Shown: piece after piece, positions 8,325 to 49,980 of the stretch
How positions within the stretch are numbered: the stretch's first letter is position 1
How the letters are laid out: each line of letters opens with the position of its first letter
Source of the DNA: Patescibacteria group bacterium
GTDB taxonomy: Bacteria > Patescibacteriota > Microgenomatia > UBA1406
NCBI GenBank assembly: GCA_041665145.1
Contig: JBAYJK010000002.1
Span: forward strand, 168,339 to 232,338
DNA length: 64,000 bases
Reading direction: 5' to 3'
Translations under genes and position numbers: made by a program
The notes under the pieces: generated by a model
What the model was told of the DNA's origin: nothing
The model's input: the letters and a program-made list of their open reading frames with translations, nothing else
Database searches by the model: none

Positions 8325-9323
8325 TTAATCAACCAGCATGTACCCGCTTTTTTTTACCGTTTGAATAATTTGAGGAAATACACCCATTGCTTCTACTTTT
8401 TCGCGAACGCGCTGCATAAGTTTTGCCATAGATTGCAAAGAAAATTTGTCATACGATTCTTCACCCCACAAAACATCAGCAAGTTCGTCGTAGGACACAA
8501 GTTTGTTTTTATTTCCGATAAAGTATTTCAAGGCTTTCAATTCTTCATTACGAAGAGCAACATCCGTTTCTTTTTGATGGACCAAAACACGGTCACCGAC
8601 AGTGCTGAACACTTCACCGGTAGCAATGCCGAGCTTCTCATAATATTGTCGTGAAGCCTCAGCAAGGTTACCTTGCTGTTTTTGCCGGATAGAGGCAAGC
8701 ATCGGCACTCTGTGTGGCACCAATGTGTGCAACCCGGACTCCGTGAGCATAAAGTCTTTGATTGCCATAAGTTCTTCCCAGGTATACTCCACCCCATGAT
8801 CGAGAATAAGGAGCCGCTCAAGGATAAGTGCGCCGATTAAATTTGACTCAAAATTATCATTCCGTACATATATAGTGATCTTACCCAGGTTGTCTTGTGC
8901 CCACGAACTGTATGATGTTCCCGTTGAACCGAAGTTGGTTACCCGGACTTCTATTTCTGTGATACCGATAAACCATTTCGGCGCCAAAACGTCCATAATT
9001 TTCCAAAACTTCTTTTCGTTTTTCTTCCAGGCAGCAAGCGTTTTACTCATATCAATTTCTTTTTCGGGAAGTAGGTCTGTAACGGCTTTCATAAACTGCT
9101 CGTCATGAATTACCTCTTTTCCCTCTTTTCGAACCCTGTCCCAAAAATGCGGTACCTTTGCATATTCAAAGGCGGGAAAGTAAATTACTTTACTATTATT
9201 CTCATTATTATAGGGCAGAACATAGAAGCCACGTTTTTCATAGAAACTTGAAACGATCATTGAGGCAATATGAATAATACGCTCGGCTTCAGTTCGCTTT
9301 GAACTCACCCATGTCATTTTCAT
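8325..9323 (-). CDS. DNA-binding protein with a C-terminal OmpR/PhoB-type winged helix and an unknown roughly 230-aa N-terminal domain; no receiver domain
   Basis: The C-terminus LKALKYFIGNKNKLVSYDELADVLWGEESYDKFSLQSMAKLMQRVREKVEAMG...IQTVKKSGYMLVD matches the Trans_reg_C pattern. The N-terminal domain is not a response-regulator receiver. Confidence 0.7.
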   Translation of the reverse strand: MKMTWVSSKRTEAERIIHIASMIVSSFYEKRGFYVLPYNNENNSKVIYFPAFEYAKVPHFWDRVRKEGKEVIHDEQFMKAVTDLLPEKEIDMSKTLAAWKKNEKKFWKIMDVLAPKWFIGITEIEVRVTNFGSTGTSYSSWAQDNLGKITIYVRNDNFESNLIGALILERLLILDHGVEYTWEELMAIKDFMLTESGLHTLVPHRVPMLASIRQKQQGNLAEASRQYYEKLGIATGEVFSTVGDRVLVHQKETDVALRNEELKALKYFIGNKNKLVSYDELADVLWGEESYDKFSLQSMAKLMQRVREKVEAMGVFPQIIQTVKKSGYMLVD

Positions 9324-9329
9324 GTCAAG

Positions 9330-9359
9330 ATTATATCATACTATGGGATAAAATGTCAA
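9330..9359 (-). promoter_or_regulatory. sigma70-like promoter of 8325..9323; leaderless geometry
   Basis: Minus strand: TTGACA (9354..9359), 18-nt spacer, TATAAT (9330..9335), then 6 nt (CTTGAC) and the ATG at 9323. Confidence 0.6.
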
Positions 9360-9425
9360 GTATACGCACAGGATATGTAAACTGAGAATTAACGAAGTCC
9401 TGAGCGTAGCCGAAGGATCTTTAAC

Positions 9426-9454
9426 AGGTTGGTGAATGTCTCAACACAGTGGGT
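9426..9454. repeat. left inverted repeat of the GC-rich cassette
   Basis: The reverse complement of 9426..9454 is ACCCACTGTGTTGAGACATTCACCAACCT. The right copy is ACCCACTGTGTCGAGACAGTTTCACTAACCT. That is 27 of 29 aligned positions plus a 2-nt indel. Confidence 0.7.
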
Positions 9455-9463
9455 TGGTTACCC

Positions 9464-9489
9464 GCTGTAAACAACAGCTGTAAACAACA
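9464..9489 (+). repeat. perfect tandem duplication of a 13-mer
   Basis: GCTGTAAACAACA occurs at 9464..9476 and again at 9477..9489. Confidence 0.9.
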
Positions 9490-9817
9490 ATTGAATATGA
9501 GTCCTTTCCCGAGGGCTCCACGTGTTCCGATTCGGGTTACCGGCGGATAATTACGTGCTTTTATGGGAAAAAGTTAGGGTGTCTTTAAGAAAACATCCAA
9601 AAACATCGATTCAAGCCTGTTTTTTTAAATCTGTGCTTTAGGTACAGAGGTCGCCTGCTCACCCTTTGAGTAGGAAATCGCCGATTTTGAGGCAGACAGC
9701 AGCGAGAGAGAAATCATTATTCTCATATTTTTAGAACCCAGAAGATTCATTACTCTCGCCTGGGATTTGCCTCGTTTCGCTCGCCGCAACGGCGAGCGTG
9801 ACTTACGGAGGATTACG

Positions 9818-11074
9818 ATGACAAGCCGAATGTTCCAAATCCTGACAGTTTTGGTAGCAATTTGCGTGTTTTTGACCTTCGTGCCGAGTGTTTCGGCACA
9901 GGGAAACGTTTTCACTTGTCCGTACGGCGGGCAAAGCGATGAGAAAGCTGTAGCTGAATACACGAACGTTCATGGAACGTTCGAAGCCGCCCAAACAGCT
10001 TGGCGCCGCGATCACTGCCAAACGCAGACATGGGCGTGTTACACAGCAAACGGCGAACGGAAGATCGAGACTGGGTTTGACACCCAGTTTGGTTTTCAGT
10101 TCAACAAAGCGCTGTGGCTTGAGCAAGCCGCTAAAAGCGGCTGTTTCGACGGTTTCACCTGCCCATATGATGGTCAGGTGAGTGGCATTGCCAAAGTGGA
10201 CGAGTACGTGTCCGTCCATGGTACGTTCCAAGCCGCTCAGCTTGGATGGCGCCGTGATTGGTGCCAAATTCAAACCTGGACCTGCTACCCCCAGGCCGGG
10301 GGGCAGGTCGATGAAACCACTTTTGAAGTGCAAGCCAGCTTTCAGTTTGACAAAAGGAGCTGGCTCGCAGTTGCTGCACAGAATGGCTGCTTTGAGCAGC
10401 CTCCTGCCCAGGCAACTGCCGCAGTTGACGGGGGGCTTCCTGCAGCAGCGGCAACCGCCACCCCGGCAGTAACAGCCACGCCAGCGCCAGCCGCAACCCA
10501 GACCCCTGTTCCCCACCGCCTGACGATCGACGAGGCCCGGAAAATGGATCTGAGGTCCGTCATCTGCTACCAAGATGGCGACCCGGACAAACGGGCGGGG
10601 GCAACCCCCGAGCTAGTCTTCGAAAAAGGGGGAGTTGAAGGCTGGTACCAGTACGTGGAGACCATGGGGTGCAAGAGAACGCCCCGGTCACAAACTACCG
10701 GCACAACAACTACTTCTTCGACCACAGTGGTTCTGGGGATCGCTGGGGGCGGAATCGGTTTAATCGTACTCGTGGTCATTGTCCTAGTAGTCTGGTGGAC
10801 ATGGCCACGGCGATACGAGCAGAAACAGCCGATCTCGATCCCAATCGCCGGGAAGTTAGTCAGTGGCACCGTAAAGGTGACCATTGACGCTACTCGTGGG
10901 ATTCTCGGAAGCGCCGGGAAAGCGTTCCTACCCTTCTTTGACGGGAAAGGGATCTCCCGCATGCCGGCAGGAGACGCCAAAGCTGGCGCGAGCGTCGTCG
11001 GTCAACTTTTGAAGCTCGTGATAATAGTACTACTCTTCCTGGCAGCACTCGCTGCCTTCGGAAGAATCGGATAG
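9818..11074 (+). CDS. secreted, membrane-anchored protein with two tandem 4-Cys repeats of about 85 aa
   Basis: ATG at 9818 is preceded by GGAGG (9807..9811) at 6-nt spacing. The signal peptide is MTSRMFQILTVLVAICVFLTFVPSVSAQG. The repeats FTCPYGGQ...WRRDHCQTQTWACY...SGCF and FTCPYDGQ...WRRDWCQIQTWTCY...NGCF are followed by an Ala/Thr/Pro linker. A TM segment VVLGIAGGGIGLIVLVVIVLVVWW and a second C-terminal hydrophobic helix complete the protein. Confidence 0.7.
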   Translation: MTSRMFQILTVLVAICVFLTFVPSVSAQGNVFTCPYGGQSDEKAVAEYTNVHGTFEAAQTAWRRDHCQTQTWACYTANGERKIETGFDTQFGFQFNKALWLEQAAKSGCFDGFTCPYDGQVSGIAKVDEYVSVHGTFQAAQLGWRRDWCQIQTWTCYPQAGGQVDETTFEVQASFQFDKRSWLAVAAQNGCFEQPPAQATAAVDGGLPAAAATATPAVTATPAPAATQTPVPHRLTIDEARKMDLRSVICYQDGDPDKRAGATPELVFEKGGVEGWYQYVETMGCKRTPRSQTTGTTTTSSTTVVLGIAGGGIGLIVLVVIVLVVWWTWPRRYEQKQPISIPIAGKLVSGTVKVTIDATRGILGSAGKAFLPFFDGKGISRMPAGDAKAGASVVGQLLKLVIIVLLFLAALAAFGRIG

Positions 11075-11203
11075 TTTTACCTGAGCGGCCAGATTGCATC
11101 GGCCGTTCACTCCTGGAGATTAAATTCACCGTACGAAATTGCTCGTACGAATTGTGTTTATCTTCAGAAGAAATAATGGCCGATGCATTTTGGAATAATA
11201 ATC

Positions 11204-11234
11204 ACCCACTGTGTCGAGACAGTTTCACTAACCT
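11204..11234. repeat. right inverted repeat of the GC-rich cassette
   Basis: See 9426..9454. Confidence 0.7.
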
Positions 11235-11240
11235 CGTTCG

Positions 11241-11281
11241 CCCCGCTACGTTCAAGAGCCAGAAGGCTGAACGTAGCGGGG
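11241..11281. other. strong hairpin with a 14-bp stem and no U-tract
   Basis: CCCCGCTACGTTCA (11241..11254) pairs with TGAACGTAGCGGGG (11268..11281). One arm resembles CTGAGCGTAGCCGAAGG at about 9400..9417, outside the left inverted repeat. Confidence 0.6.
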
Positions 11282-11350
11282 AGTTCAAACTAAGTTTTTA
11301 ATTACTGGTTTCTAGTTTCTATTGAAGGACTAGTTGCCAACTAGTAGTTT

Positions 11351-11740
11351 CTAAACAGAATTTCTGAGGGTTTGAAGAATTTTCGTGAAGATTTTTACAT
11401 ACTCAAAAAACTCATTACTTAGAGCCTCAATAGTAACTTTATGTCCGAGTTCAGAGTTTCCTAACAGACTTAACCAGTACTTTGCCTCTAAAGCCTCTTT
11501 CTTACAAATCCCGATTTTATTACGAAAATCGTTTCTTGAAACTGCCCCGTTTGCCTCATGATAATTGGCTCCTATACTTGTCCCCGAACGAAGAAGTTGG
11601 TCAATAATGTTTTGATTGTATCGCGTGATAGGAATTGCCTTTAAACTTCTTATGAGCGATGCCGAAAATACTGTTAATCTCTTCTCAAGTTCATATTGCT
11701 GCATCGAATTACTATACTTGAAGAGAGAATTCATTAACAA
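11351..11740 (-). CDS. four-helix-bundle protein (23S rRNA intervening-sequence protein family)
   Basis: IIDQLLRSGTSIGANYHEANGAVSRNDFRNKIGICKKEALEAKYWLSLL is the characteristic core of this family. The true start may be the internal Met at 11704. Confidence 0.75.
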   Translation of the reverse strand: MLMNSLFKYSNSMQQYELEKRLTVFSASLIRSLKAIPITRYNQNIIDQLLRSGTSIGANYHEANGAVSRNDFRNKIGICKKEALEAKYWLSLLGNSELGHKVTIEALSNEFFEYVKIFTKILQTLRNSV

Positions 11741-11855
11741 GTGCTTATAAGCAGCAAGTGGACTCTTTTATGGTCTCCCGTTTTGAAAATAGAAACTAAT
11801 CCCCAGAAACTCAATAGAAACTAAAAACTAGCAATTAGAGATTGTGGACGAATAT

Positions 11856-17702: not shown

Positions 17703-19748
17703 TTAAAAGGTTCGTTGTAATACGCAATCAACATTCGCCAATGTGTCCAGATGATAGCCGATTGAACCGGACGTCGCCCAGTTTGCCTCAAAAATTTTGA
17801 TTTTTCCATCGGACGCAATTGTGCCGATTTCTGCAATATGTCCGAAAGCTCCCGTCGTATAGATTGCTATATTACCGACCTGAACCATTTGTACGGAAAG
17901 TTGATCCTTCATCAATCTCCGATAGCCATTTGGGACGCTTCCGCTACAATAAGCCTTAGCATTTCGGCCATCAAGACCGCCACCTGTTCCCTGTTCCACT
18001 GCCATGACATACCCGACACACTGAAGATACGTATGACTCTGTGCCGATTGATATAGTATGTTGTAGACCGGAGTCGCCAATTGTCCCTGCAGACAGCTTG
18101 CAATAAGATTTGCTGTCAGACCGACTGTCCGCACTCCATTGAACGGTGTGGCGCCATTACACAGGGTACCGGCCGATGTCAAAAGATACTGAGCGTATTC
18201 TGCTACTTGTGTCGGAGCAGGACCAAGTGTAATGTTTAGTGTTGGATATGGGTATGCCCCAGTCGGATTTGGTGAATAGTTGACGTTTGTGTTACTGGTA
18301 TACTGACTTGACGAACCCCTCGGCAGCAACGCTTCAAAAATCCGTTCGTGACTCCGCACAGCAGCGTCTTGTTCTGCGCTCGTACCCCCGAGTCCAGTTT
18401 GATTATTTTTGGCTACCGTTGCCGGAAAGTACGTATTCGCATACCCTTTCGGTGAAGAAGATACGTTAAACAAATTGCTGAAAAATGCACCAACCGATTC
18501 AAATACATTTGACGGCGGTTTGGGAGAATCTACATTCACCCTTTGCGGTTTGGATGAAGTGTCTGCACTCACCTCGACTTGTTTTTCTACAAATAAACAA
18601 CTCAATCCCAAAAAACCGCAATCTTCGGACCGGGATGCATTTACTTCGTCCCGTTTTTTTCCTGGGATTGATCCGTTTGTCCGATTTCGTAAATGTGCCT
18701 GAATGGAATCCGGTAAACCGGTTGGTGTCGCAACAAGGCGCTGCGTCGGCACCGGAGAAAGACCGGAGACCGGACCGGTACCGCCTCCCACCGCTCCTTC
18801 AGCAATAATAACTACTTGTTCTGCAAACGACTTGTCCATCCAACTGCCTTCATCCGGTTCGGGAGTTTGCGGCGAGTATGAGAGCATGGAAAACATAATC
18901 ACATTACTCTGTGTCCATTGGCTTTGCACAATATCGCTGTGTAAATAGGTGCTGAACATATCCACATACTGCTGTGTATACGGGTACTTCACCATACTGC
19001 CGCCACCGACATCCGGTGACGTGCAATCAACACAGACAACGCCTGTTTCATCAATAATCACCGGTTTACCTGAAAGACCGAGTTGAGCAAGAAACGCCGT
19101 CACATTACCCTGCTTTAGCTGACTTGCACTGGTATCCATGCCTCCGCTATTCATTTGGCCATATGCGTGGTATGAAACGACATCAAACTGGTTGAAGTAG
19201 TAGAATCCGCCAAGCTCTTCATAACAGGTCGTCCCGTGATCGGCAATCTGAAACGGGTCAAATGACGGGGTTGATAGCTTTACTTTTCCGCTCCAGGAAG
19301 GGTCTTTAAAGTTATTCAGCAACCCGTCCAGATATGCTTTCACATCCGTACTCGAACAATTTATTCCTTCAAACGGATTGTCCGGCTCATTCATGGGAAC
19401 AAAATATACCGGGTTAGTTATTTTAGATAAATGAGGCAAAAAAGCATTGACCCATTCCTGAGCATAACGTGCTTTCAATTCCGGAGCACCTGGTGCCGAA
19501 TGAGATGCGCGGATAACCAGATTGAGGTTGTGTGAATTTGCCTGATTGATAGCGTCTAATACTTGATCAGGTGAAATCATGCGGACAATCCAACCGCCGG
19601 GGCCTACCAGATTTGCCGCCCGCTCTGTGTCCCCAATCCCCGCAACGTTAATACCGAATTTAACGGCATAAACTGGCTGGGTTGATAGTAGATAGTAGAT
19701 AGTAGATAGTAAAAAGGCAAAGACAAAAACACCTAGTTTATGATGCAT
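17703..19748 (-). CDS. secreted two-domain hydrolase: N-terminal clan GH-A-like TIM-barrel glycosidase and C-terminal CHAP amidase/peptidase
   Basis: A signal peptide is present. The NEPDNP and IIDETG motifs are spaced as in clan GH-A. The C-terminus YLQCVGYV...GNIAIYTTGAFGHIAEIG...IFEANW supplies the CHAP Cys/His pattern. Confidence 0.65.
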   Translation of the reverse strand: MHHKLGVFVFAFLLSTIYYLLSTQPVYAVKFGINVAGIGDTERAANLVGPGGWIVRMISPDQVLDAINQANSHNLNLVIRASHSAPGAPELKARYAQEWVNAFLPHLSKITNPVYFVPMNEPDNPFEGINCSSTDVKAYLDGLLNNFKDPSWSGKVKLSTPSFDPFQIADHGTTCYEELGGFYYFNQFDVVSYHAYGQMNSGGMDTSASQLKQGNVTAFLAQLGLSGKPVIIDETGVVCVDCTSPDVGGGSMVKYPYTQQYVDMFSTYLHSDIVQSQWTQSNVIMFSMLSYSPQTPEPDEGSWMDKSFAEQVVIIAEGAVGGGTGPVSGLSPVPTQRLVATPTGLPDSIQAHLRNRTNGSIPGKKRDEVNASRSEDCGFLGLSCLFVEKQVEVSADTSSKPQRVNVDSPKPPSNVFESVGAFFSNLFNVSSSPKGYANTYFPATVAKNNQTGLGGTSAEQDAAVRSHERIFEALLPRGSSSQYTSNTNVNYSPNPTGAYPYPTLNITLGPAPTQVAEYAQYLLTSAGTLCNGATPFNGVRTVGLTANLIASCLQGQLATPVYNILYQSAQSHTYLQCVGYVMAVEQGTGGGLDGRNAKAYCSGSVPNGYRRLMKDQLSVQMVQVGNIAIYTTGAFGHIAEIGTIASDGKIKIFEANWATSGSIGYHLDTLANVDCVLQRTF
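19684..19711 (+). repeat. perfect heptamer tandem array (GATAGTA)x4 inside the signal-peptide codons of 17703..19748
   Basis: Read directly from the sequence. On the minus strand it encodes LLSTIYYLLST. Confidence 0.9.
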
Positions 19749-27822: not shown

Positions 27823-28773
27823 ATGGAATATGCATACATCTCTTCCGGTTCATTCGGTGCTCAAGTTCTGCAGCACCTTGATCCAAAACCATCGCTCGTA
27901 ATTACGGGAATAGACAAACTCGGCGGCCGGGGTATGAAAGAATTGATTCAGACTCCCGTCAAAAAACTATGCACAGAGCTACATATACCTTACAAAGAAG
28001 TTGCAGATAAGATTGAACTTGCCAAAATTGTGAGAAGCGACGACGAGCGACAGCGAGAAGGAGCGACGAAACAATTGGCTAAGAGGCTCCTGTTGTTATG
28101 TGATTTCGGAGTAATAGTACCTTCAGAACTTTTGCATTTAAATGAATATGGCATTTGGAATATCCACCCCTCTCTCCTACCCAAACATCGTGGAACTACA
28201 CCTATACAGACTGCACTCTTGAATGGAGAAAAAGTCACGGGCGTGACAATTATGCAGATCGATGAAAAAATCGATCATGGCCCAATTATTGCACAAGAGC
28301 GGACAGAAATTGACATCAACGATACAAACGTAACGCTGCAAGCAAAGCTGGCAGAAGTTGGAGCGACATTAGTTAATAGTAAATGGTTGAGAGTTAATGG
28401 TAGTTCAGAGACGTTGAGACCTTTAGACATTCAGACTCTTAGACCACAAGATCATTCTCAAGCAACATTCACTAAAAAATTGACTAAAGAAGACGGTTTT
28501 GTCCCCCTGAATGAGCTTGCCCCATACCTTGAGCCTATACTCAAGAAATATAATTTAATGCATTTATTACCAACTGGATCCGAGATTCGCGATGCGCGAT
28601 ACGCAGATGTTTTGCATAATAAGATCCGTGCTTTCACTCCCTGGCCAGGTGTATGGACGAAACTAGCCGATGAATCGGTTTTGAAAATTGTTTCGAGCAC
28701 CTTTGAAGAAAGTGAAAAGATATTTGTCATAACGGAAGTCGAAAGAAACGGAAAGAAATATGGATGTAAGTAG
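27823..28773 (+). CDS. fmt: methionyl-tRNA formyltransferase
   Basis: IWNIHPSLLPKHRGTTPIQTALLNGEKVTGVTIMQIDEKIDHGPIIAQ is present. TATAAT (27811..27816) lies 6 nt before the ATG. Confidence 0.85.
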   Translation: MEYAYISSGSFGAQVLQHLDPKPSLVITGIDKLGGRGMKELIQTPVKKLCTELHIPYKEVADKIELAKIVRSDDERQREGATKQLAKRLLLLCDFGVIVPSELLHLNEYGIWNIHPSLLPKHRGTTPIQTALLNGEKVTGVTIMQIDEKIDHGPIIAQERTEIDINDTNVTLQAKLAEVGATLVNSKWLRVNGSSETLRPLDIQTLRPQDHSQATFTKKLTKEDGFVPLNELAPYLEPILKKYNLMHLLPTGSEIRDARYADVLHNKIRAFTPWPGVWTKLADESVLKIVSSTFEESEKIFVITEVERNGKKYGCK

Positions 28774-33180: not shown

Positions 33181-33306
33181 AAAGTTTTCAGTTTACAGTT
33201 CTCAGTTTTTAAAGAGTTCTTAAGAAACAGCTCTTAAACTGTATTTGTTTAGTACTTAAGAACTATTAGTTTCTTTAAGAACTGAAAAATGAGAACCGAG
33301 AACTCG
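33181..33306. repeat. family A palindromic intergenic element (GTTCTTAAG / CAGTTCTCA words), copy 1
   Basis: About 85% identical by eye to 43641..43756. Both share the 17-mer core TTTAGTACTTAAGAACT. Confidence 0.75.
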
Positions 33307-36502: not shown

Positions 36503-36530
36503 ATAATTTTCAGTTTTTAGTTTCTAGTTT

Positions 36531-40171: not shown

Positions 40172-40206
40172 AGTAGCTAGTAGTTAGTAGATAGTAGATA
40201 GTATAT
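40172..40206 (+). repeat. degenerate heptamer array (AGTAGNT)x5 in the leader of the ACL-like operon
   Basis: The units are agtagct agtagtt agtagat agtagat agtatat. The heptamer is the same as in 19684..19711. An extended -10, TGGTATTAT, lies at 40205..40213 on the minus strand. Confidence 0.8.
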
Positions 40207-40222
40207 AATACCATAAGAAATT

Positions 40223-42271: not shown

Positions 42272-42330
42272 AGTTTTCAGTTCATAGTTCTCAGTTTTTA
42301 AAGAGTTTTCGGTTCTTAAGTATTAAATAC
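42271..42330. repeat. family A element, half copy
   Basis: aagttttcagttcatagttctcagtttttaaagagttttcggttcttaagtattaaatac matches the left arm of 33181..33306. Confidence 0.65.
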
Positions 42331-42873: not shown

Positions 42874-43641
42874 ATGTACTTAGAATCTGAGGCGCAAACA
42901 TATTTACAAAAACTCGGTTTGACTCAGGAAGAGGCAGATCTGTACTTGTCTTTGGTGAGAAACGGTCCGTCTAACCTACTGAAAGCTTCCCGTTACTCGG
43001 GAGTTGAAAGAACAAAACTGTATCGAATGATCGGCTCGTTGAAAGACAGAGGAATCATTGAAGAAGTTCTTGCCCACAAGAAACATGTTTTAAAAGCAGC
43101 CTCGGCTGACCGTTTGCTATCGATCATTCAATCACAGCAGTCTGAACTGACCACTGCACAATCTGTCTTCCCCAACTTTAAACACTACCTGCAATCCATC
43201 CAGGCGCCCACACAAGGTACTGAAGTCTTATATTATGAAGGGATTGATGGTATACGTCAGATTTTATGGAACACTCTGCAGGCACGGCCGATGTTGCGGT
43301 GTTATGTCGATACGGTTTTTAACCGAATAGTCGGTCAAAAATTTCTTGAAAGTTGGGGTGAGGAAGTTGTTGCTTTGAATATGGAAATTCGCCAATTTAA
43401 TAGTCCGAATTTTTTGAAAAGCCACAAAGGGGTGCAACCGGTGAATTTAGGTAAGAAATTTAGCATGAAAGATGCCCCAAAAGAAGTTGCCGTAACACAC
43501 GGAATGGATATATACAATGACACAGTTGCGATTTACTATTGGGAAAATAACGAGATTCTGGGAGTTGAGATAAAAAACCCAGCAATTGCCCGAATGCAAG
43601 AATCTATCTTTGACTTCTTTTGGAACAAGATAAAGAGTTAG
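42874..43641 (+). CDS. TrmB-family transcriptional regulator
   Basis: The N-terminal winged HTH is YLQKLGLTQEEADLYLSLVRNGPSNLLKASRYSGVERTKLYRMIGSLKDRGIIEE. Confidence 0.7.
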   Translation: MYLESEAQTYLQKLGLTQEEADLYLSLVRNGPSNLLKASRYSGVERTKLYRMIGSLKDRGIIEEVLAHKKHVLKAASADRLLSIIQSQQSELTTAQSVFPNFKHYLQSIQAPTQGTEVLYYEGIDGIRQILWNTLQARPMLRCYVDTVFNRIVGQKFLESWGEEVVALNMEIRQFNSPNFLKSHKGVQPVNLGKKFSMKDAPKEVAVTHGMDIYNDTVAIYYWENNEILGVEIKNPAIARMQESIFDFFWNKIKS

Positions 43642-43756
43642 TTCTTAGTTCACAGTTCTCAAAGAGTTCTTAAGAGACAGTTCTTAAACAGCATCTGTTT
43701 AGTACTTAAGAACTAGTAGTTTCTTTAAGAACTGAGAAATGAGAATTAAGAACTGC
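43641..43756. repeat. family A palindromic intergenic element, copy 3
   Basis: See 33181..33306. Confidence 0.75.
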
Positions 43757-48497: not shown

Positions 48498-48749
48498 GTT
48501 TTTGCAAAACTATAAGGGTCTTCCTATTAAACGTTGGCTTCGTATTATATACAAAATTTGTACAACTACATTGTACCAAATATATATAAGTTTTGGACTT
48601 TCTTGATTGCATGAAATCGTTTTTTATTGAAATAATATCATATTCTAGATTCATGTTATAAGTATATCTATAAGATAGATTTATCAAACTTTATTCACTC
48701 GCCTTCTTTATTGAAAACTGTAAACTGTAAACTGAAAACTAATTATAGG

Positions 48750-49757: not shown

Positions 49758-49847
49758 ATAGGTAGTATAGTACAAACGAAAAAAAACAAAAAGTACAGGG
49801 CACAGAACTATTACTTAATAGTATTAAAATATATCAATATAGATCAT

Positions 49848-49980
49848 AAAGTTCTCAGTTCTTATTTTTCAGTTCTCAAAGAGTTCTCGGTTCTTAAGTA
49901 CTAAACAAACACATCTTCGTTTGAGAACTGCCACTTAAAAACTCTTTAAAAACTAAGAACTGTTACTTAAGAACTAGTAG
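49848..49980. repeat. family A palindromic intergenic element, copy 4 (inverted orientation)
   Basis: It contains ggttcttaagtactaaac, the reverse complement of the family core. Confidence 0.7.

Follow-up and report, generated by a model that had tools for sequence, protein, structure and literature searches.

What is the origin of a lone GC-rich gene enclosed by inverted repeats in the genome of an uncultured patescibacterium, and what do the repeats do? The gene in question is an open reading frame (ORF) of 418 aa (9818..11074, + strand) in a stretch of 64,000 nucleotides, hereafter the window, from a Patescibacteria group bacterium (Microgenomatia; UBA1406; assembly GCA_041665145.1, contig JBAYJK010000002.1, positions 168,339 to 232,338). 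It lies next to a divergently transcribed winged-helix gene and between two repeat arms in inverted orientation. The initial annotation of this DNA, made from the letters alone, took the segment for a horizontally acquired, non-autonomous cargo element bounded by terminal inverted repeats (TIRs) and named a structured long-range RNA stem as an alternative. As set out below, orthologous loci in relatives speak against a recent arrival of the gene. For the repeats, we favour, tentatively and short of calling it probable, an explanation in which they pair the two ends of the mRNA and the resulting stem governs the processing or stability of the mRNA of a surface-protein gene.

The inverted repeat described at the outset stands. 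Its left arm, AGGTTGGTGAATGTCTCAACACAGTGGGT (9426..9454, +), forms the centre of the most conserved block of the gene's leader, whereas its right arm, ACCCACTGTGTCGAGACAGTTTCACTAACCT (11204..11234, +), begins 130 nt past the stop codon; the segment between them (9455-11203) measures 1.75 kb. An 18-nt core matches in inverted orientation at 17 of 18 positions (9437-9454 against 11204-11221), and gapped alignment lengthens this core to the full arms, with 27 of 29 positions matching, two mismatches and a 2-nt indel. Local alignment of the reverse complement of the 5' region with the 3' region gives a score of 42, against 18.7±2.2 (maximum 30) in 2000 shuffles. The core is present in the 64 kb as this pair only, with an expectation of 0.07, and a ranking of the ~55 ORFs of the window by complementarity between their upstream and downstream regions has the GC-rich gene at the top with a score of 42, followed by its right-hand neighbour with 39. 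The similarity ends abruptly at the arm boundaries. A weaker similarity, said to continue outward from the arms between CTGAGCGTAGCCGAAGG on the left and the hairpin at 11241-11281 on the right, dissolved on inspection: it is weak and at chance level, and its left copy falls in a lineage-specific insertion of 36 nt (~9379..9414, +) that is missing in both of the close relatives described below (contigs L006 and L007). The outward 13-mer, CTGARCGTAGCSG, has seven matches with at most two mismatches against 2.1 expected, a number reached by 2 of 100 shuffles, and two of the other near-exact matches fall within coding sequence. A promoter within the arms was also considered and rejected, as inspection by eye found no acceptable -35/-10 pair on either strand.

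The history of the locus can be read from its relatives. With the product of the divergent neighbour as an anchor (a winged-helix protein of 332 aa with a Trans_reg_C domain and no receiver-domain match; 8325..9323, -), homologues with 74% (P0002) and 72% (P0003) identity were found on contigs L006 and L007, respectively. Both contigs display the same layout, namely a leaderless promoter identical to that of the window, ~400 nt of intergenic DNA that align with the window at ~70% identity and, at the equivalent site, a divergent GC-rich gene for a secreted membrane protein, which is preceded by a Shine-Dalgarno (SD) sequence. The L006 product starts with MISRMFQVL…VPSVSAQ, almost the same signal peptide as that of the window gene, and the L007 protein has in common with it the architecture of a Cys domain, a second Cys domain and a transmembrane (TM) segment. 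Across the lineages, the GC-rich proteins thus combine a common architecture with an identity of only 24-31%; set against the 72-74% of the winged-helix neighbour, this means that the GC-rich gene evolves far faster. In the relatives, too, the gene stands out by its G+C content (0.50-0.67 versus 0.36-0.48 in the surroundings), and its third-codon-position G+C (GC3) of 0.75 and 0.52 exceeds the 0.55 and 0.43 of the respective winged-helix genes. The persistence of this GC3 excess in three lineages points to a composition that is maintained rather than one that was imported once.

The left arm is likewise found in both relatives, as ACCGCTGTGTTGAGACATTCACCAACCT and ACCCACTGTGTCGAGACTATACACCAACCT; L007 has a C at TGTGTCGAGAC and a 4-nt spacer, and L006 has ACCGC. 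Among the three lineages, 24 of the 29 left-arm columns are invariant, as are 45 of the 54 columns of the block 9415-9468, against 120 of 328 (37%) in the rest of the leader. When the four available arm copies are compared, the half-blocks …GAGAC and CACYAACCT are conserved and the spacer between them varies from 3 to 5 nt. Since two relatives carry the same gene, leader and left arm at the same site, the locus is, on these comparisons, ancestral, vertically inherited and lineage-specific. Winged-helix homologues at 40-42% identity occur in other syntenic settings, which are uninformative on empty sites, and a scan of genome contigs with the winged-helix protein found nothing.

An artefactual join of unrelated sequences is ruled out by the agreement of three assemblies and by the recurrence of the left junction in the two relatives. 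The interval 9324-11855 is 100% identical in the JGI/NCBI contig (293 kb; GCA_041660585.1), an ENA MEGAHIT contig (480 kb) and a Logan contig (15 kb). These three represent one population, being 99.99-100% identical over 14-20 kb, so that the assemblies are independent of each other but the strains are not; the left junction, however, is corroborated by two different organisms. One of the samples, JGI 3300037810, figures in a study of landfill metagenomes.

Between the left arm and the start codon runs a long 5' leader (9455..9817, +) that includes the SD GGAGG (9807-9811) and contains, all on the + strand, the conserved hairpins H2 (9499-9518), H3 (9519-9557), H4 (9654-9674) and H5 (9778-9798), the last of which is absent from L007. 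At its head stands a further local hairpin, H1 (ACAGTGGG-N7-CCCGCTGT; 9446..9468, +), which is retained in both relatives. Where the left arm ends on its inner side, H1 overlaps it over positions 9446-9454 and would therefore compete with a long-range stem formed by the arms. Within H1, L006 has a C-G pair where the other two lineages have a U-G wobble, and the end of the L006 stem shows a compensatory GGT/ACC change, as read by eye from the sequences rather than from a tool alignment. A tandem duplication of 13 nt (GCTGTAAACAACA twice; 9464..9489, +) is represented by a single copy in the relatives.

Several measures suggest that this leader is constrained as an RNA transcribed in the direction of the GC-rich gene. 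When the helix positions of the five hairpins are tabulated over the three lineages, 110 of 114 cells are paired in the + sense versus 102 of 114 in the - sense, and the helices include 10 G-U cells on the + strand and two A-C cells. The RNAalifold consensus of the leader reaches -59.7 kcal/mol in the + sense versus -42.5 kcal/mol in the - sense, and the leader folds more stably than its own shuffles (z = -2.9). On account of this + sense pairing and fold excess, we read the leader, left arm included, as a likely structured RNA of the GC-rich gene. Rfam returned only three tRNAs at gathering score in the window and nothing but sub-threshold chance matches in 9300-11400, and neither the leader nor the protein belongs to any RNA or protein family of the libraries that were searched. 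A leader peptide was rejected, as the leader's small ORFs do not recur in all three lineages.

We favour the following explanation of the two arms. The fast-evolving surface-protein gene would be transcribed divergently from the winged-helix regulator gene as an mRNA with a structured 5' leader of ~400-470 nt and a strong SD. The left arm would be a conserved element of that leader, and the right arm its inverted copy in the 3' untranslated region (UTR). In the full-length transcript, the arms would then form a duplex of 27 bp, interrupted by one internal mismatch and a 2-nt bulge, that displaces the conserved hairpin H1 and closes the whole mRNA into a loop. This duplex has a predicted energy of -44 kcal/mol. 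When 9346-11300 is folded, the minimum free energy structure has the arms paired with each other, at a pair probability of ~1.0, and H1 displaced. In its length and geometry, such a stem would be a typical substrate of RNase III and a typical 5'-3' UTR interaction, through which the processing, stability or translation of the mRNA may be set. The structured long-range RNA stem that had been named as an alternative thereby offers the best explanation here, although we infer the presence of both arms on one transcript, the formation of the stem in vivo and its role.

The closest known cases fall into two sets: functionally, they are the 5'-3' UTR duplexes and the stems processed by RNase III, and structurally, the invertons and the miniature inverted-repeat transposable elements (MITEs). 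Among the former, pairing between the two ends of one bacterial mRNA is known from the fold-back inhibition of the hok mRNA and from hbs of B. subtilis. A further instance is icaR of Staphylococcus aureus, for which a duplex between the 5' and 3' UTRs is reported to be cleaved by RNase III (PMC3868564). As in icaR, complementary segments of the 5' leader and the 3' UTR would close the mRNA through a duplex of a size suited to RNase III. The duplex predicted here from the sequence far exceeds those of icaR, hok and hbs in length, at 27 bp, is close to perfect and bears no sequence relation to theirs.

The RNase III processing stems that bracket rRNAs, and those of the intervening sequences (IVSs) of 23S rRNA, provide a second parallel. 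[quoted passage not shown] The resemblance extends to the size of the stem (~28 bp) and its two interruptions, to terminal inverted repeats around an ORF-containing segment and to the presence, next door to the locus studied here, of a PF05635/TIGR02436 gene with a 27-nt inverted repeat of its own. In contrast to the IVS, the element is not inside an rRNA, the window being devoid of rRNA; the segment enclosed is 1.75 kb as opposed to ~0.4 kb; and the enclosed ORF encodes a secreted protein of 418 aa that has no PF05635 match and is not a four-helix bundle of the S23p type.

Some observations weigh against a stem that joins the ends of the mRNA. The energy of the arm duplex is nearly the same for the two strands (-44.1 versus -43.7 kcal/mol), with the two arm mismatches giving one G-U on each, and the arms thus carry no strand signal. 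A terminator-like hairpin (11130-11149) and the long hairpin around it (11089-11193) precede the right arm, so that transcription might stop short of it. A distance of 365 nt separates the left arm from the SD, which means that the arm cannot mask the SD in the way reported for icaR. A promoter scan of the + strand upstream of the left arm yielded no good candidate, the best matching at 9 of 12 positions, although a weaker candidate facing the winged-helix promoter, ATGTCA-N17-TATCAT (9311-9339, +), might start the leader transcript; both the start and the end of the presumed mRNA hence depend on ambiguous predictions of promoter and terminator. The strand bias of the leader helices was measured on helices predicted on the + strand and on three sequences only. 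Finally, the contigs of both relatives end within the GC-rich gene, and the comparison of the arms there is one of the left arm only.

That conservation is seen for the left arm alone would also suit a history, in our estimate rather unlikely, in which the right arm has no function and was left behind when the conserved leader block underwent a small inverted duplication or rearrangement, and only the left arm functions, either in the leader RNA or upstream of a promoter. The leader of this lineage has indeed undergone other recent small rearrangements, in the form of the 36-nt insertion and the 13-nt tandem duplication, and the sharp stop of the similarity at the arm ends is in keeping with such an event. 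However, an identity of 27 of 29 positions amid unrelated sequence requires either that the event be very recent or that selection has acted, and the exact inverted placement of the copy just beyond the 3' structures of the gene would have to be a coincidence.

More doubtful is an invertible gene switch, in which a recombinase encoded elsewhere flips 9455-11203, thereby uncoupling the leader and the gene from the fixed promoter region at 9311-9359 and turning the surface protein on and off. The enclosure of a complete surface-protein gene by 29-nt inverted repeats is what such a switch would need, and the strongly conserved left arm separates the leader from the only strong promoter region; the gene also evolves fast, and the contigs of the relatives break inside it, as population heterogeneity would cause them to do. 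Against this, the arms differ from each other by a 2-nt indel and two mismatches, and the G-U pattern of the leader indicates constraint at the level of RNA. Promoter invertons are typically well under 1 kb, a size that the 1.75 kb enclosed here exceeds. Invertons are commonly tied to cell-surface genes (PMC11892184), and those that underlie phase variation of surface proteins share with this locus inverted repeats of 20-30 nt, a variable surface gene and an adjacent fixed promoter region (PMC11892184, PMC7672463). They differ from it in that here a whole gene with its leader, rather than a promoter, is enclosed, a single orientation is seen in the three assemblies of the one population, and neither the ~10 kb on either side (window 1-22 kb, by the Pfam record of its genes) nor another 10 ORFs of the window showed a domain of a recombinase or invertase.

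We grant no greater likelihood to the arms being two copies of a protein-bound DNA site, upstream and downstream of the gene, at which the winged-helix regulator or another factor would act by looping, insulation or repression. The position of the left arm invites this idea: as the initial annotation had stated, it lies upstream of the winged-helix promoter, ~70 nt from a perfect TTGACA-N18-TATAAT (70-100 bp over the length of the arm), and it is conserved and placed beside a palindrome. The lack of strand preference in the duplex energy would be natural for a DNA site. The two conserved half-blocks separated by a spacer of 3-5 nt in all four copies recall a bipartite site, yet a spacer that differs in length between copies fits poorly with a rigid protein site made of two parts, and the 29-nt match exceeds a typical operator. 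OmpR-type winged-helix domains usually bind direct repeats, which further counts against this reading; the TGACAT repeats at the start of the winged-helix gene constitute a better candidate box and are kept in 40%-identical homologues that lack the arm.

The promoter of the winged-helix gene (9330..9359, -) is situated 6 nt from the ATG at 9323, is leaderless and is 100% conserved in both relatives. The surrounding start and promoter region, TATAATCTTGACATnAAnATGACAT (9311-9359; ~5165-5200 in L008 and ~3475-3510 in L020), is kept even where the proteins are at 40-42% identity, and 50 nt of it are 100% identical across the three close lineages. Within it, the TGACAT repeats are spaced 11 bp apart, and the region is likely an autoregulatory box for the OmpR-type domain. 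A small ORF (MSFSCQDYIILWDKMSS…; 9299-9385, +, in the window and 1911-1991, -, in L007) runs antisense to this region and is conserved between lineages, most likely as a by-product of promoter conservation. In the contigs L008-L013 of more distant relatives (e.g., L008 3575-5120), the winged-helix homologue is divergent from a gene for a 52-aa Cys-rich peptide, followed by a radical-SAM enzyme and an acetyltransferase, a neighbourhood that looks like a cluster for a ribosomally synthesized and post-translationally modified peptide.

The compositional contrast, which had lent the segment the appearance of a GC-rich cassette, is genuine in its excess of G+C but not in its extent. A sliding profile shows a G+C content of 0.50-0.68 over ~9775-11124 against a background of ~0.43. 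The coding sequence (CDS; 9818-11074) has 0.566, with 0.59, 0.50 and 0.60 at the first, second and third codon positions, and is the sole compositional outlier of the ~55 ORFs, all others having at most 0.50 G+C and at most 0.51 GC3. Inside the repeats but outside the CDS, values are near those of the rest of the window (0.43), namely 0.455 in the leader (9455-9817) and 0.41 in 11075-11203, so that the repeats also enclose compositionally ordinary DNA, ~360 nt of it to the left of the gene and ~130 nt to the right. As the G+C steps lie at the edges of the CDS, the compositional border is that of the coding sequence and not that of the repeats. Part of the excess is accounted for by amino-acid bias (second-position G+C of 0.50 versus ~0.35). 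Codon bias may contribute, and so, plausibly, may biased conversion linked to recombination, given a variable locus for a surface antigen.

Other hallmarks of mobility were sought as well. No target-site duplication is found at the flanks of the arms (GATCTTTAAC before the left and CGTTCGCCCC after the right) or at the wider bounds first proposed for the cassette. The initial annotation had called for searches for further repeat copies and for empty sites: no further copy came to light in the window, the fetched loci or the public collections, and no empty site was found, the two closest relatives found both being occupied and equipped with the left arm. Exact-pattern scans gave two matches in metagenome, three in genome and none in viral collections, which is at chance level (for the genome collection, our own estimate of the chance expectation is ~11), and the matches had no flanking similarity. 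It had rightly recognised no mobility gene, as neither the ORF (Pfam, NCBIfam, PHROGs, PADLOC) nor the record for the flanks includes a transposase, integrase or recombinase. As a refuting outcome it had named relatives with the gene but devoid of the repeats, together with repeats found nowhere else; the relatives do carry the gene and the repeats were not found elsewhere, but the left arm is retained in those relatives. Nor does the locus have the composition of an islet, its atypical part being limited to the CDS and its orthologues in the relatives being GC-rich too.

A TIR-bounded cargo element derived from a MITE or an insertion sequence, horizontally acquired and inserted upstream of the winged-helix promoter, is accordingly very improbable despite the terminal inverted repeats, the compositionally deviant gene, the atypical translation signals and the lack of database homologues that recommended it, since it fails every test run (occupied relatives, target-site duplication, copies and composition): gene, leader and left arm occupy the same site in relatives with 72-74% neighbour identity, the left arm sits inside a longer conserved block shared by the leader and the promoter-upstream region, G+C shifts at the CDS borders, and there are no phage, plasmid or viral relatives. 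With MITEs and other non-autonomous TIR transposons, the locus shares the terminal inverted repeats and the lack of a transposase inside them, but it differs in having no target-site duplication, a single copy wherever searched, occupied orthologous sites and one arm embedded in a longer conserved regulatory block.

The GC-rich gene itself encodes a protein with a Sec-type signal peptide (…VPSVSA followed by QG), two repeats of ~82 aa with four conserved Cys each, which are also visible as a DNA repeat. A Pro/Ala/Thr linker leads from these to another Cys domain, which is followed by a TM helix, a tail and, at the C-terminus, a hydrophobic helix. These features suggest a secreted, membrane-anchored surface protein with Cys repeats. 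Pfam, NCBIfam, PHROGs, PADLOC and the PDB sequences gave no match to the ORF; a word-indexed search of 5.8 billion proteins detected no homologue, a full HMMER search of 1.84 billion representatives returned only a fragment of the protein itself, and tblastn against phages and plasmids, together with viral loci, revealed no relative of the gene. A single-sequence AlphaFold model has a pLDDT (predicted local distance difference test) of 46. The gene calls of NCBI PGAP and JGI split the ORF (L001, L024) into pieces of 69-176 aa on both strands, probably owing to a composition that the genome model does not fit, and those of ENA and Logan give 414 aa; as a consequence of the fragmented calls, the protein is missing from most protein databases.

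The initiation signals of the gene, too, were correctly singled out at the start: GGAGG lies 6 nt ahead of the ATG at 9818, whereas nearly all other genes of the window lack an SD and carry a TATAAT-like -10 box 5-8 nt ahead of their start codons. Because -10-like hexamers directly precede the start codons and SDs are lacking, the genome is, by these signals, predominantly leaderless in translation initiation. Long leaders or special roles distinguish the few SD-led genes seen, which are the GC-rich gene and, in L008, the gene for a small peptide.

Downstream of the GC-rich gene, the DNA is rich in structure. A long imperfect hairpin of 105 nt (11089..11193, +) stands directly past the stop codon and is very stable, with the terminator-like hairpin at its interior; it matches nothing in Rfam and is not repeated elsewhere in the window, and the folding of 11060-11300 as a whole reaches z = -8.2. 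Beyond the right arm follows a perfect GC-rich hairpin of 14 bp (11241..11281) between two convergent genes, which is likely a bidirectional transcript end, although no canonical T run comes directly after it. The immediate neighbour on this side is a gene for a four-helix-bundle protein of the 23S rRNA IVS type (PF05635, TIGR02436; 11351-11740, -). It is bracketed by the 27-nt inverted repeat mentioned above (11299-11325 and 11811-11837, 24 of 27 positions matching) and looks like an IVS-type element outside any rRNA. The arms of this second repeat are built of AACTNNN heptads; because such heptads recur in arrays in other intergenic regions, these arms may be two copies of a dispersed motif. 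For a 202-aa neighbour, no homologue besides itself was found. The resemblance of the four-helix-bundle neighbour to Avd raised the possibility of a diversity-generating retroelement, which was rejected, as there is no reverse-transcriptase candidate and no template/variable repeat pair; the single YxDD motif match belongs to a 231-aa Pro-rich ORF.

Repeats made of AACTNNN heptads occur elsewhere in the window at 33183-33207, 36512-36529, 42272-42296, 43640-43657, 48716-48740 and 49846-49943. Their copies extend over 60-115 nt, some form inverted pairs, and they are often just upstream of -10 boxes. A second type of array, composed of TAGATAG-type heptads (GTAGATAGTAGATAGTA…), is present at 19681-19725, 28372-28402 and 40173-40217, in regions that are intergenic by the ORF list, and one such array is directly upstream of tRNA-Trp.

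More generally, this locus teaches that an orphan gene of odd composition bounded by repeats is insufficient ground for calling a mobile element, as it was the orthologous loci that reversed such a call. What emerges in its stead is a picture that we put forward as a possibility of some way below even likelihood: a reduced, mostly leaderless genome may keep one hypervariable surface gene under RNA-level control, through a conserved leader of ~400 nt and an mRNA-closing stem that competes with a local hairpin and acts as a post-transcriptional switch or as a gate for RNase III, or else the same repeats may serve as a switch that inverts the whole gene. If the stem does form, the locus would be a clean natural example of the closure of an entire mRNA by near-perfect pairing of its 5' and 3' UTRs. 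The conserved leader would then represent an undescribed cis-regulatory RNA, and the stem would regulate a rapidly evolving surface protein of an uncultured bacterium whose transcriptome is mostly leaderless.

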